Shown: piece by piece, positions 1 through 4,840 of the stretch | Position numbering within the stretch: position 1 is the stretch's first letter | Layout: the number at the start of each line of letters is the position of its first letter | IMG/VR virus record: IMGVR_UViG_2695420658_000004 | Length of the DNA stretch: 4,840 bases | Direction: 5' to 3' (one strand) | Origin: a virus | Lineage: Duplodnaviria > Heunggongvirae > Uroviricota > Caudoviricetes | The notes under the pieces: model-generated | What the model was told of the DNA's origin: nothing | What the model saw: only the letters and a program-made list of their open reading frames with translations | Databases searched by the model: none | Translations under genes and position numbers: made by a program

Positions 1-11
1 TCAACTGATCC

Positions 12-1168
12 TTAACTGATCGGCATTACACCACCGGGACGCGGATTCATATCTTCCAGGTCGCGGCAGTCATTGGAAGAGTAAATTCCCCAGTTGATCC
101 CGGTGGCGTAGGCTTCAAAACGGGACTTCATATCCCCGCGCAGTAACGCCCCGGCGTTAAATTTGGCGTAATAAACGCCCTGCTTACTTTTTCGTACCAG
201 TCCGGTGTTGATCCGCTGTTCGATGCGGGTCAGATACGGCACCAGTGAATAGTTGATAAATCCCAGCCCCAGCTCTTCGATATTGTTGAAGGTGGCGCGA
301 TCGGTGTTCTGCACCATGTGCAACGGCACCCGGAACAGACGACAGATTTCTTCCAGCTGAAACTTGCGGGTTTCCAGGAACTGACTGTCCTCGGCGTTCA
401 GCGCCATCGACTTCCAGTCCAGCCCCATTTCCAGAATCATCGGGCGGTGAGCATTGCCAAGCCCCGTGTGACACTCCTCAAAATCTTTCTTCAGACGCTC
501 GTAAGCATCCGGCGTGAGCTTTTGTTCCGTACGCAACACACCGGATGTCACCGCACCATTACTAAACAACCTGGCACCGTGCTCCTCGGTTGCCGCTGCC
601 AGTGAAATGGCCTCACGCGCATACGCAATGGGATTCAGCCCGACAAGTCCATCCAGCGTCAGGGTGCGCACATGCCAGATTTCATTCTGGGTCAACACAT
701 CCACGGAACCATCCGGAAACGTCACCTGATAAACCGGCTGCCACTGGCTGTTCAGCTTCGGTTCCACACAGCCCGGATCTATCGGAAGAAGCTCCACCAC
801 TTCTCCCAGTGCCTTTACCTTGTAGGCGTAAAAATTCCCCCGTAGACACAGGCAGACAATAACCAGCTCCCAGAATTCCTGCGGTGTCATGTAGCCATTA
901 GGTTTTGCCGAAACCAACTTATGCAGTCGTTCATCCACCGCCCGTGTTTTCAGGGTACCGCTGATTTTGTAGAGACTGCAGGGCAGCATACCAACAGACT
1001 CTGCCAGCACCCTGACGCAAGAATAGACCGCCGTCAGGCGCATGGCCCGCTGGCTACTGATCCGCTTTCCGGTATAGGTGTCGTATGACAGCCCGATAGC
1101 ATCAGCAGTTCTGCTGGCGTGGTCACCGGCACATCGCTTTTTCGTTGAAATAATCCCGAAAAGAACAC
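12..1168 (-). CDS. Phage portal protein, HK97 family; N-terminus apparently disrupted by a 1-nt frameshift near 1092-1094
   Basis: The 415-aa minus-strand ORF (12..1259) has the conserved portal N-terminal motif (RLTAVYSCVRVLAESVGMLPCSLYK) and sits directly downstream of the large terminase, the expected gene order. The nominal start at 1259 is a TTG with no RBS and overlaps the upstream small ORF by about 90 nt. A much better start is the GTG at 1168-1166, which has a GGAGGT RBS 5 nt upstream (1179-1174) and overlaps the upstream stop (TAGTG). That frame reads [26 protein letters not shown], then diverges from the body frame at a GGG run (plus-strand CCC 1092-1094) and stops at 1036-1034. 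Alternative start: ATG at 1043-1041, giving 343 aa with no clear RBS. Confidence 0.8.
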
Positions 1169-1350
1169 TATTTACCTCCGCCGACAGACTGCCGTGTACG
1201 GTCGAGATATCGCGCCACCAGCCACGACCAGAACAGGCACAGCGCCCCGGCAACAACAAAACCCGCCGGGGGATAAATCAGCCAGGCACCATACGCCAGC
1301 AAAAGCGCACCCAGCACGCCCACCAGAGGCGCGAGAATCAGCATGATCAT
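1168..1350 (-). CDS. Small hypothetical membrane protein (60 aa, two predicted transmembrane helices) between large terminase and portal
   Basis: ATG at 1350-1348 preceded by GAGGT (1359-1355) with a 4-nt spacer, 11 nt after the terL stop (TAA 1364-1362). The product [60 protein letters not shown] has two hydrophobic stretches separated by a YPPAG turn and a basic C-terminal tail. Its TAG stop (1170-1168) overlaps the candidate portal GTG start. The position recalls the 60-aa ymfR ORF between the terminase and portal remnants of E. coli prophage e14, but this is recollection of gene order only, not sequence. Confidence 0.5.
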
Positions 1351-1361
1351 AATTACCTCAG

Positions 1362-3095
1362 TTAAAGCGAGCGGATCCCGTAGGACTCAATGTGGTCAGA
1401 CAGCGTGTCTTCTTTCTCGTACAGCATGGCTCTGCCAACCGCCATAATCAGCGCAACTGCACCATCGATTTTGTTTTCCGCCTGCTCTTTGACGGGTTTC
1501 ACCACATCATCGTTACCCGGCATGTTTTTGCCGACCACGTTGCCGATACACCAGGTCATGATGGGATTGCCGTCATGATGAAAACGTCCCGATTCAATCG
1601 CTGCTTCCAGCTCTTTCATCGGATCGGACATATTGGTGAAGTTCTGGACGATAGTGACGGGATTCAGGTCTTCATCAGCAAGGTCATGTGACAACCCGGT
1701 CGCCCCGAAGGGGTCGATGGGTGACTCACTGACCGGGCTGATTTTGTTCGCCGCTTTGGCCTCCTCGAGGATGTAGCGATAATCCACCTCCGCACCATCG
1801 GTAACGGTCAGAACGCCCATTTCCACCCATTTCTGAAAGCGTTCGGCTGTCCGTCGATCTTCATTTTTCTCGACGCTGTACACCGTGTCATACGGTACCC
1901 AGAAACGCGGGGCCACACTGTAGTAATGCGTTTTACCGTCAATCTCGCGGGTATAAAGTCGCGCCATGCTGTTCATATCCAGCTTACGCGCCAGGTCAAA
2001 GGCCAGAATGCACGGCTGCCCCTCGAACTGCTCAAGGGTCAGTGATTTATCCTCGCAGCTCTGCCAGCTCACCAAGTTGAAATACGCCGAACGCGCCGAC
2101 ACCCAGATATTGAGGTGTTTTGTTTTAAAGACGTTTGCCAGACGGGCGTTATTTTTCGCACGCTGCTGCTGACTTAACAAAAATTCGCGATAAACCGACA
2201 CGCCAATATTTGGATTGGCTTTTTCCAGCACCTGCGGGCCGGTCCAGTCGTCACCTTCATCAACGGTATAGATGATCCCGAACAGTTCATCGTTAGGCAC
2301 CGAGCCGTTGAGCATCTCGATGACTTCCCGCCGCTTGTCGTAGCACGGCCCCTCAATGTTGTACCCGGCGGTGGTGATGGCCCACATCAGTGGCTGACGT
2401 CGCGCCCCCATCCCGGTAAGCATTGTGGTATAAAGCGCATCGGTGGCATGCTCGTGATATTCATCAACCACGGCACAGTGGGGTGATGAACCATCACCTG
2501 GGTTGCCGATCAGCGGTTCAAACCGCGCGCCATCCTCCGGACGGTTCATGTTTGAGGCGTTAACCTCAATCCCGAACGCTTCCGTCAGCATGGGTGTGCG
2601 TTTACACATCAGTCGCGCCGGGCGAAAGACTTCCCACGCCTGTTTCTCTGTCGTGGCACCGGAATACACTTCCGCGCCAAACTCGTTATCACAGGCAAAA
2701 CAATACAGGGCAACACCGGCAGAGATTGCTGATTTGCCGTTCTTACGGGGGATTTCGGTGTACACCTCCCGGAAGCGGCGCAACCGGGTGCCTTTATTGA
2801 CCCAGCCAAACGCACAGCAGATCACAAATAGCTGCCACGGCTCCAGCGTGATGGGCATCCGTTTGAATGCCCACTCCCCCTTGGTGTGCGGCAACAGCTG
2901 AATAAATTTCGCGGCCCGTTCAGCCAGGTCCTTGTCGAAGCGGTAACGAAACGACTTACTTTTTTCCGCCATCAGGTCATCAAGATGGCGCTGGCAGGCC
3001 TGAATCACAAACTGGCAGGCAACAATCTTTCCGCGCACGACATCCCGGGCATACTGATTTGCAGCATTTACGTTGGGGTAAGATTTCCGGCTCAT
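1362..3095 (-). CDS. Phage terminase large subunit (577 aa), ATPase plus nuclease
   Basis: Long uninterrupted ORF. A P-loop-like motif (EIPRKNGKS) and a Walker-B-like motif ([10 protein letters not shown]) lie in the N-terminal half, and acidic residues typical of the RNaseH-like terminase nuclease fold ([11 protein letters not shown]) in the C-terminal half. The ATG at 3095-3093 overlaps the terS stop (ATGA, 3095-3092). Flanked by terS upstream and portal downstream. Confidence 0.93.
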
Positions 3096-3439
3096 GATTC
3101 GATAATTTTCAGAAACGGGTTAGTGGCTTTCTTCTGCCCCGCCAGGCCAATCAGACGCTGGCGGCTGCTGGGGTCGAGTCCGAGCATTGCCCCCGTGCTG
3201 CTCATCTCGGACTCCTGTTCTTTTTTGGCGGTCAGCTCCGGATTTTTGACCCTGCCGCCCATTGCACCGGTGATGGTGTTGCCCTGTATGGCAATATTTT
3301 TCACGGCACGTCGCCAGAACTCATAGGCCACGCACCNNNNNNNNNNNNNNNNNNNNNNNNNNNNNNNNNNNNNNNNNNNNNNNNNNNNNNNNNNNNNNNN
3401 NNNNNNNNNNNNNNNNGTTCTTTGGTTGTCAGTTGCCAC
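3092..3439 (-). CDS. Phage terminase small subunit, P27 family; 5' end uncertain because of masking
   Basis: The C-terminal 80 aa read cleanly from 3334 to 3092 ([80 protein letters not shown]) and resemble P27-type small terminases (the [10 protein letters not shown] motif). The stop overlaps the terL start. The track start at 3439 is a GTG with no obvious RBS, and the intervening 3337-3416 is N. The true start could be that GTG (115 aa), or could lie further upstream in the masked block if the N-run length is not exact. Confidence 0.7.
3337..3416. other. Masked/unknown sequence (80 N)
   Basis: Run of n characters in the supplied sequence; lies inside or just upstream of the small terminase gene. 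Confidence 1.
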
Positions 3440-3480: not shown

Positions 3481-3756
3481 NNNNNNNNNNNNNNNNNNNN
3501 NNNNNNNNNNNNNNNNNNNNNNNNNNNNNNNNNNNNNNNNNNNNNNNNNNNNNNNNNNNNNNNNNNNNNNNNNNNNNNNNNNNNNNNNNNNNNNNNNNNN
3601 NNNNNNNNNNNNNNNNNNNNNNNNNNNNNNNNNNNNNNNNNNNNNNNNNNNNNNNNNNNNNNNNNNNNNNNNNNNNNNNNNNNNNNNNNNNNNNNNNNNN
3701 NNNNNNNNNNNNNNNNNNNNNNNNNNNNNNNNNNNNNNNNNNNNNNNNNNNNNNNN
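3481..3756. other. Masked/unknown sequence (276 N); expected to contain the HNH 3' end and the cos region
   Basis: Run of n characters. The flanking genes (HNH above, terS below) imply by analogy with HK97 that the cohesive-end site lies here, but this cannot be seen. Confidence 1.
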
Positions 3757-4106: not shown

Positions 4107-4556
4107 CTACTTAATGCACTGAGTGCGGATATACTCCTGTGCCCCTTCCAGTTGCATCTGCATCGTCATCAGCCGCTCTCTGAGGGTGAAATAATCCCGT
4201 TCAGCGGTGTCTGCCAGTCGGGGGCTGGTTGCATTATCCACGCCGGAGGCGGTGGTGGCTTCACGCACTGACTGACAGACTGCTTTGATGTGCAACCGAC
4301 GACGACCAGCGGCAACATCAGCGCGCAGAGTTTCATTTTCAGCTTTCGCATCAGCTAACTCCTTCGTGTATTTAGCATCGAGTGCATNCTGCTGCATGTC
4401 AGTAATGGTTGCGTTCGCCAGCTTCAGTTCTCTTGCGTTTTTGTCGCGCTGCTCTTTGTAGGTAATGGCGTTATCACGGTAATGATTAACAGCCCATGAC
4501 AGGCAGACGATGATGCAGATAACCAGAGCGGAGATAATCGCGGTGACTCTGCTCAT
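4107..4556 (-). CDS. Rz: Rz i-spanin (inner-membrane spanin subunit), lambda Rz-like
   Basis: Starting at the ATG 4556-4554 the product reads [47 protein letters not shown]..., an N-terminal transmembrane helix followed by a charged coiled-coil-like periplasmic domain; near-identical, from memory, to lambda Rz. The ATG overlaps the lysozyme stop (ATGA). The track's GTG at 4568 is probably not the real start. One ambiguous base (n) at 4388. Confidence 0.93.
4169..4351 (-). CDS. Rz1: Rz1 o-spanin (outer-membrane lipoprotein spanin subunit), embedded in Rz in an alternate frame
   Basis: 60-aa ORF wholly inside Rz in a different frame: [60 protein letters not shown]. It has a signal peptide with a lipobox (LVVVGC), a proline-rich stretch and the length and architecture of lambda Rz1. 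Confidence 0.9.
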   Translation of the reverse strand: MRKLKMKLCALMLPLVVVGCTSKQSVSQCVKPPPPPAWIMQPAPDWQTPLNGIISPSESG

Positions 4557-4840
4557 TGCTGCCCCCACAAACAGACTTCACGCTCAATCTCACGACGGGT
4601 CATCAGCCCTTTCCATTGCTTACCGCCAGCATATGTCCAGCGACGTAGCTGGTCACATGCGCCTTTGATATCGCCCTGGTTTATTTTGCGAAGAAGCGTC
4701 GATGTTCTGAAATTGCCAGCGCCCACGTTGTAAACGAACGAGTAAAGAGCGCCGCGCGTTGTTTCCGGTATATCGACTTTGATGTACGGGTTAATTTGTC
4801 TGGCGACAGTGGCAAGGTCTTTATTCAGGAGGGCTTTGCA
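4553..4840 (-). CDS. Phage lysozyme/endolysin, C-terminal 95 codons (5' end beyond window)
   Basis: Hand translation of the minus strand from 4840 gives an open frame [95 protein letters not shown], ending at TGA 4555-4553. It resembles the C-terminal half of phage-21 / DLP12 RrrD-type lysozymes (T4-lysozyme-like fold), from recollection. Absent from the ORF track because the start lies outside the window. Confidence 0.88.

Follow-up and report, generated by a model that had tools for sequence, protein, structure and literature searches.

An IS4 insertion and a probably later one-base deletion in the portal gene of a decaying HK97-type prophage of Shigella sonnei

In the phages phiP27, ST64B and SfII and in related E. 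coli prophages, the gene of the large terminase (TerL), a 60-aa ymfR-like ORF and the portal gene (L38, NP_543090 in phiP27; Sb4 in ST64B; gp04 in SfII) follow one another in this order. The homologue of the 60-aa ORF is named ymfR in RefSeq and 'membrane protein' in phage records. The start of the portal gene overlaps the stop codon of this small ORF (TAGTG) and is preceded by a GGAGGT Shine-Dalgarno sequence. The portal itself is one ORF of 413-414 aa in phiP27, E. coli A36, ST64B and SfII, and genes for the protease and the capsid come after it. The same module is found in the e14 cryptic prophage of E. coli K-12, where the portal gene beeE (b1151) lies downstream of ymfN and ymfR. The HK97 portal, of which structures are available (8cez / 8fql), is a distant functional homologue. 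IS4 is among the five insertion sequences (IS) expanded in all Shigella species, and 719 coding sequences (14%) of a S. sonnei collection have been inactivated in one genome or more, by IS, nonsense mutations or frameshift indels, so that strains vary in them (Hawkey et al. 2020, PMC7373316).

This work describes a damaged copy of the module in a stretch of 4,840 nucleotides (IMG/VR record IMGVR_UViG_2695420658_000004), hereafter called the window. Based on its ORFs and their homology, the window is a prophage remnant of Shigella sonnei, encoded on the minus strand, of the HK97 type and related to phiP27, ST64B, SfII and e14. We hold it for almost certain that this is a decaying HK97-type prophage of S. 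sonnei, whose portal gene carries two independent lesions, an IS4 insertion and, after it, a one-base deletion.

All features of the window discussed here lie on the minus strand. The late-gene block comprises lysis genes for a lysozyme and Rz/Rz1-type spanins, and genes for an HNH endonuclease and the small terminase (TerS) are partly N-masked. The TerL gene (1362..3095) is intact and encodes 577 aa. The ymfR-like ORF (1168..1350; 60 aa) is hydrophobic by sequence and has no Pfam or NCBIfam match, and its TAG stop overlaps the GTG at 1168-1166. The GGAGGT motif (1179-1174) is located five bases upstream of this GTG and is invariant in the homologues. Gene order, TAGTG overlap and ribosome-binding motif are thus the same as in phiP27, ST64B, SfII and the E. 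coli prophages, of which the portal DNA is 87-93% identical to that of the window. The portal body (29..1105) corresponds, by profile and structure matches, to residues 22-380 of an ancestral 413-aa portal of the HK97 family.

The first-pass annotation of this DNA had taken GTG 1168 with its GGAGGT motif as the portal start, and the homologues bear this out: the equivalent codon is the annotated portal start in phiP27, E. coli A36, SfII and K-12 beeE, and the start in ST64B is annotated three bases upstream of it. The frame opened by this GTG was also read correctly. It spans 44 codons (1034..1168) and ends at the TGA at 1036-1034, while the portal body continues in another frame, one base behind. 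Of these 44 codons, 26 had been considered portal-like. However, only codons 1-21 are native, with (V/M)FFSGLFQRKSDVPVTTPAEL as the native N-terminus; codons 22-44 are out of frame, including those for the 'LMLSG' that had been counted as portal sequence.

A one-nucleotide frameshift in the portal N-terminus had been proposed at a homopolymer, the GGG run that reads CCC at 1092-1094 on the plus strand. The alignments to homologues confirm the frameshift as such, but place it elsewhere. Compared with every intact homologue examined, the window is exactly one base short: intact alleles read CTGGCG or CTGGCT where the window reads CTGCT, leaving a single G at 1106 (site 1105..1107, at the boundary of codons 21 and 22) instead of GG. 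The extra G, at gene base 63, is present in 12 out of 12 intact homologues, namely the four annotated ones (phiP27, E. coli A36, ST64B and SfII) and eight prophages (L022-L029) with a GTG-started portal of 413 aa, and all 12 read through in one frame. At the GGG run, and on either side of it, no difference is seen between the window and the four homologues aligned. The run lies 12-14 bases from the true site, which is a GG dinucleotide and cannot usefully be called a homopolymer. A repair with the additional G placed in the GGG run (...ELLMLSGLSYDTYTG) was considered as well; it does yield an open frame, with five wrong residues, LMLSG for ADAIG, and this repair site was rejected for that reason. 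The correct repaired reading is ...PAELADAIGLSYDTYTG, which is the same in ST64B, SfII and K-12 BeeE. A one-base repair had been expected to give a protein of about 385 aa. This length was right, and an exact protein is on record (P0165, see below), with ELADAIG rather than ELLMLSG at the junction.

The intact state is widespread among relatives, which differ from the window in 5-13% of the bases in the portal region. BLAST returned 1394 matching records in 5426 complete E. coli genomes and 20 in 50,697 phage records, and each of the matches listed is one base longer than the matched query. The 76-base core with the deletion had no match of ≥ 95% identity in the 5426 complete E. coli genomes (BLAST), so that the deleted allele is carried by none of them. 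The intact allele GAACTGGCTGAT is present exactly in one IMG/VR contig, L015, and the predicted ancestral string CCAGCAGAACTGGCTGATGCTATCGGGCTGTC is also found exactly in this contig. The event was thus the loss of one G, with nothing else changed. The 44-aa ORF, a 415-aa TTG-started ORF and the reconstructed 413-aa ancestor have no exact entry in the protein collection. Neither the frameshifted nor the repaired junction has an exact match among species-level representative contigs; our guess is that this set holds no separate S. sonnei genome.

When the G is restored and the IS4 sequence is removed together with one copy of its target-site duplication, a portal of 413 aa is obtained, as in the prophage portals mentioned above. 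This repaired protein matches PF04860 with 358.8 bits (cut-off 39.1; match from residue 47) and TIGR01537 (portal_HK97) with 263.3 bits (cut-off 112.05; match from residue 39). Against the HK97 portal structure 8cez it gives E = 3.4e-53, with residues 27-385 aligned onto 41-403. As residue 27 is aligned to HK97 residue 41, the solved portal also has an N-terminal segment ahead of the core. The close relatives have the portal as a full-length single ORF of about 413 aa, which in the window is interrupted by the deletion at 1106 and cut by IS4 at 29. Judged from these matches, the locus descends from an HK97-family portal gene but is a pseudogene and not a functional member of the family.

The portal homology ends at window position 29, and positions 1..28 are the left terminal 28 bases of IS4, TAATGCCGATCAGTTAAGGATCAGTTGA. 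The insertion point lies behind the first base of codon 381. Of the portal, 380 residues are kept and the last 33 are lost, their place being taken by a false C-terminus, VMPIS, which the IS4 end supplies together with a TAA stop at 14-12. Because positions 1-28 are IS4, the ORF with the G restored is still a truncated portal. In two of the assembled loci (L008 and L009) the element measures 1426 bp, with imperfect inverted repeats (17 of 20 terminal bases matching between the ends) and a transposase of 442 aa of the IS4 family (NF033592, 303.8 bits). Elements annotated in RefSeq as 'IS4-like element IS4 family transposase' match it with 100% identity. The IS4 sequence at 1-28 had gone unnoticed in the first-pass annotation.

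IS4 produces target-site duplications of 11-13 bp. The left copy of a 12-bp duplication, GTCCCGGTGGTG, is located at 29..40 (portal codons 377-381), and its counterpart, identical in all 12 bases, stands to the right of IS4 in a single scaffold, L021 (4197-4208). Beyond the duplication, L021 continues with the portal 3' end and the genes for the prohead protease, major capsid protein, connector and tail. Originally, IS4 had thus simply inserted here and duplicated 12 bp of its target. The right-junction string, composed of the IS4 right end, the duplication and the portal 3' end (CTGACTGGCATTAGTCCCGGTGGTGATGTCTATC), was found in one viral contig only, L021, which is also the only one in which protease, capsid and tail genes come after the right end of IS4. 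The window and seven contigs of 4.8-5.0 Mb have TerL upstream of the portal, and IS4 and unrelated DNA downstream. In the seven contigs the duplication is absent, and the right flank has been exchanged for either the raiA/pheA side or the bamE/recN side, the latter together with an additional ~1.3-kb insertion within IS4. The head and tail half of the prophage has therefore since been moved or lost. A search for this other half in complete S. sonnei genomes, by way of the L021 capsid and protease, returned only intact relatives with 413-aa portals.

The left part of L021 requires some caution. Its join contains an N and an inverted hairpin loop and lacks approximately the first 50 IS4 bases, and its sequence diverges from that of the window from position 77 onward. 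This part looks like a scaffold chimera, and L021 was on that account rejected as a case of the frameshift without IS4.

The variation at both sites was compared across assemblies. The exact TerL protein of the window occurs in 4305 blocks of the assembly collection. A set of 16 loci with the frameshift allele was composed of L005-L014, collected by exact TerL, and the IMG/VR contigs L016-L021, collected by junction string. L005-L014 include the seven contigs of 4.8-5.0 Mb, among them CP000038.1, the genome of S. sonnei Ss046, which we take to have been Sanger-sequenced. Yang and colleagues are said to have treated Ss046, IS expansion and pseudogene formation in 2005. The deletion-bearing 76-base core is exact in 16 out of 16 loci, and over 3095 bases all of them equal the window except for scattered singletons, of which L021 has three.

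The repaired but IS4-truncated protein of 385 aa is an exact entry as well, namely 'portal protein [Shigella sonnei]' (P0165). Over the same 3095 bases, ten loci that encode it (L030-L039) share two differences from the window, an extra G at 1106 and a C instead of a T at 2075; beyond these, only one more SNP in L033 and an N-filled gap in L034 were observed. Position 2075 belongs to TerL codon 341, which is TTG in the window and CTG in the G-retaining haplotype and the outgroups, a synonymous difference. The G at 1106 is linked to the C at 2075, 969 bases away, in 10 out of 10 G-retaining loci, a set fetched by querying P0165, just as the frameshift loci were fetched by their own allele, and from which allele frequencies are not to be derived. 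At 2075 a C is found throughout the outgroups (SfII and the eight intact prophages), and the window haplotype (T plus deletion) is hence the derived one. For the ERR0257xx runs, to which G-retaining strains belong, no lineage entry was found in the supplements of PMC7373316.

These haplotypes also bear on the order of the two lesions. The identical IS4 junction is common to both, and the G-retaining allele keeps the outgroup C at 2075, from which it follows that their ancestor had IS4 and not the deletion. The most parsimonious reading of this pattern is that IS4 came first and that the frameshift represents secondary decay of a gene already truncated and severed from its operon. The reverse order, with the frameshift as the primary inactivating lesion and IS4 as a later arrival, is very unlikely. 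The protein collection contains far more of the frameshift haplotype than of the other, a predominance that may be due to drift or hitch-hiking, and a frameshift as the primary lesion is what the first-pass annotation had implied. However, this order conflicts with the shared junction and with the outgroup state of the G-retaining allele; it would take a precise reversion by +G plus a T-to-C back-mutation, a much less probable course. As a source of the G-retaining allele, gene conversion from a diverged relative was also considered and rejected. As the relatives are 5-13% divergent, a conversion tract of ~1 kb would bring in dozens of changes, and only two differences are seen. The mutation can thus be regarded as genuine and the prophage as defective, as the first-pass annotation had offered as one of two options, but the deletion was probably not the lesion that killed the gene, IS4 being the older.

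The other option was a sequencing or assembly error, in which one base was miscounted in this single assembly. Single-base indels are indeed the commonest assembly error, and a true example occurs nearby: L010 (CP021144.1) alone is one C short in the C5 run at 1272-1276, an assembly-specific homopolymer difference. We nevertheless find an error at 1106 hardly credible. The site is no long run, each of the 16 frameshift-allele assemblies has the deletion, and the 343-aa product predicted from the deleted allele occurs on at least 1000 contigs, every one of them named Shigella sonnei. Moreover, a random miscount cannot produce perfect linkage to a SNP 969 bases away, which instead marks two haplotypes or lineages. 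The lesion recurs across assemblies and segregates with linked variation, as is expected of a pseudogene. At the level of assembled genomes, the frameshift is shown to be a true mutation rather than a sequencing or assembly artefact.

Even less can be said for a reading without any frameshift, in which the native portal starts at ATG 1043 and counts 343 aa and the upstream 44-codon ORF is unrelated; we consider its probability close to nil. ATG 1043 is the first canonical start in the long portal frame downstream of 1168, gene callers start there, and the resulting 343-aa product is annotated in most S. sonnei assemblies. The PF04860 match, which does not set in before residue 47 of the repaired protein, would also be compatible with such a start. 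However, none of the homologous portals begins at the equivalent of this codon. The ATG (1043-1041) is an internal Met43 of the repaired protein, within the conserved 'RAMRLTAVYSC' block. Translated from the same GTG, the homologues and K-12 BeeE read ...PAELA(D/E)AIGLSYDTYTG. The 12 intact homologues and BeeE share the first 21 residues almost exactly, residue 13 alone varying among the translated sequences (V in the window, A in the others), and the nucleotide differences among homologues in this stretch are mostly residue-neutral. Both the TIGR01537 match and the HK97 structural alignment start ahead of Met43, and sister strains have the single-frame version of 385 aa. Comparison with these relatives indicates that ATG 1043 is not a real portal start.

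A programmed -1 ribosomal frameshift, or a useful split gene that produces a 44-aa peptide and a re-initiated 343-aa protein, is equally far-fetched: ATG 1043 overlaps the stop of the 44-codon ORF as ATGCGCCTGA, which could permit termination-reinitiation, but inspection revealed no X XXY YYZ slippery heptamer between 1105 and 1037, the 12 intact relatives are all single-frame, a good Shine-Dalgarno sequence before ATG 1043 is absent, IS4 has destroyed the C-terminus, and the examined stretch of the seven 4.8-5.0 Mb contigs shows neither head nor tail genes beyond IS4.

The preferred history, with IS4 first and the deletion second, may be outlined as follows. The 1426-bp IS4 entered codon 381, turned the last 33 residues into VMPIS and a stop, and cut the portal off from the genes for protease, capsid and tail. 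In the seven contigs of 4.8-5.0 Mb, a later IS-associated rearrangement brought other DNA beyond IS4. Within S. sonnei, one G of the GG at the codon 21/22 boundary (window 1106) was subsequently lost, in one lineage in which TerL also underwent its C-to-T change. The base was probably lost spontaneously, when selection on the gene had presumably already ceased. A ribosome that starts at GTG 1168 would now make a 44-aa peptide, with 343 codons left behind an internal ATG, and one that restarts at ATG 1043 would make a fragment lacking both ends of the portal. Neither shortened product is likely to be functional, and the deletion itself presumably serves no function and only further breaks a broken portal. 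There is a very slight chance that the frameshift allele is more than a neutral hitch-hiker, in that the 44-aa peptide or the re-initiated 343-aa fragment interferes with the assembly of portal rings of incoming related phages and thereby protects the host.

The locus carries little biological weight, being one more decayed prophage gene in an IS-expanded, pseudogene-rich species. Its use lies rather in the correction of annotation: the 343-aa S. sonnei 'portal protein' is best regarded as a fragment of a doubly disrupted 413-aa gene, with its frameshift lesion at 1106. It also illustrates that a frameshift that resembles an error can be resolved without reads when the other allele and a linked SNP are available from sister assemblies. 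A possible lineage marker in S. sonnei is the two-site haplotype (G deleted at 1106, C-to-T at 2075). We came across no discussion of this locus by name.

Compared with the portals of phiP27, ST64B, SfII and the E. coli prophages, which are intact ORFs followed by protease and capsid genes, the window copy has lost a G and is cut by IS4. Its closest curated parallel is beeE of K-12. Both are truncated portals in decaying prophages, with a start that overlaps the ymfR stop and with the same N-terminus. The damage differs: BeeE keeps the native frame for ~135 residues by our own reading, after which it is lost by deletion or fusion, whereas the S. sonnei copy keeps 380 codons, with a frameshift at codon 21/22 and the IS4 cut at codon 381. 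Its double disruption is a known kind of event, ordinary prophage gene decay. Set against the general pattern of IS and pseudogenes in Shigella, the locus is one instance, combining an IS4 cut with a lineage-variable frameshift, and shows no substantive difference from it.

The frameshift allele, which lacks one G at window position 1106 in the portal N-terminus, is perfectly linked to a synonymous T (TTG) at position 2075, codon 341 of the large terminase (TerL) gene. In the ten G-retaining S. sonnei loci, as well as in nine outgroup prophages, this position is C (CTG), and sites 1106 and 2075 jointly constitute a haplotype marker. By contrast with site 1106, one locus (L010, CP021144.1) alone lacks one C of the C5 run equivalent to window 1272-1276, a singleton homopolymer difference of the type expected from assembly error. 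This run lies inside a ymfR-like ORF (window 1168-1350, minus strand), which is not called in L010. The ORF encodes 60 aa, is hydrophobic by sequence and yielded no match in Pfam or NCBIfam. It is kept between TerL and the portal gene in all relatives examined, and its stop overlaps the portal start.

The 1764-base GenBank entry OR844959.1, labelled ‘Enterococcus phage Efm 3-10’, shares 97% identity with this enterobacterial TerL/ymfR/portal region and also carries the additional base missing from the window; it is probably a contamination or a mislabelled record. In the G-retaining locus L031 (GCA_001253095.1), the early/regulatory region upstream of the holin (1-3400) is unlike that of the other S. 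sonnei loci and encodes Gp49, ANT-type antirepressors, NinH and a different antiterminator. Either the prophage is recombinant, or the assembly was joined via common lysis genes.

At its 3' end, the portal gene is interrupted by an IS4 element after residue 380. The window stops inside this element, of which it holds the terminal 28 bases (window 1-28), followed by the 12-bp target duplication GTCCCGGTGGTG (window 29-40). The ending ...GGVMPIS-stop, which the first-pass annotation had taken for the natural end of the portal gene, is therefore a product of the IS4 cut. Beyond the element, the flank differs between strains. Five of the 4.8-5.0 Mb contigs (L005-L007, L010 and L011; ~9068-11829) carry an IS3-type transposase gene (rve domains) on an insert of ~1.3 kb that splits the portal-adjoining IS4, and in these contigs the element adjoins bamE/recN; in L008 and L009 (9068-10493) it is uninterrupted and adjoins raiA/pheA/tyrA. 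Since the target duplication is absent from both right-flank types in these seven contigs, the IS-associated rearrangements vary between strains.

The true right junction was found in the scaffold L021 (IMGVR_UViG_2663762996_000003; regions 2396-2860 and 4184-4260), where it comes after the IS4. Here, the frameshifted portal gene continues past the point of the IS4 insertion and enters another copy of the portal 3' end and protease, which differs slightly. This copy is followed by one N and then by an IS4 devoid of approximately its first 50 bases and containing an inverted hairpin loop. The left join of L021 has the appearance of a chimera between this prophage and a second, related one.

Parts of the window itself are masked. 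N runs at 3337-3416 and 3481-3756 partly hide the small terminase and HNH region, and ORFs listed across N-masked stretches are masking artefacts. The Rz-like spanin gene (window 4107-4568, minus strand; 153 aa) has a single masked base, at 4388, and is assigned to the Phage_lysis family in the loci. Embedded within this gene in another frame is a 60-aa ORF (window 4169-4351, minus strand) with a lipoprotein-like signal (…LVVVGC) and a segment rich in proline; together, both ORFs form a classic Rz/Rz1 embedded spanin pair.
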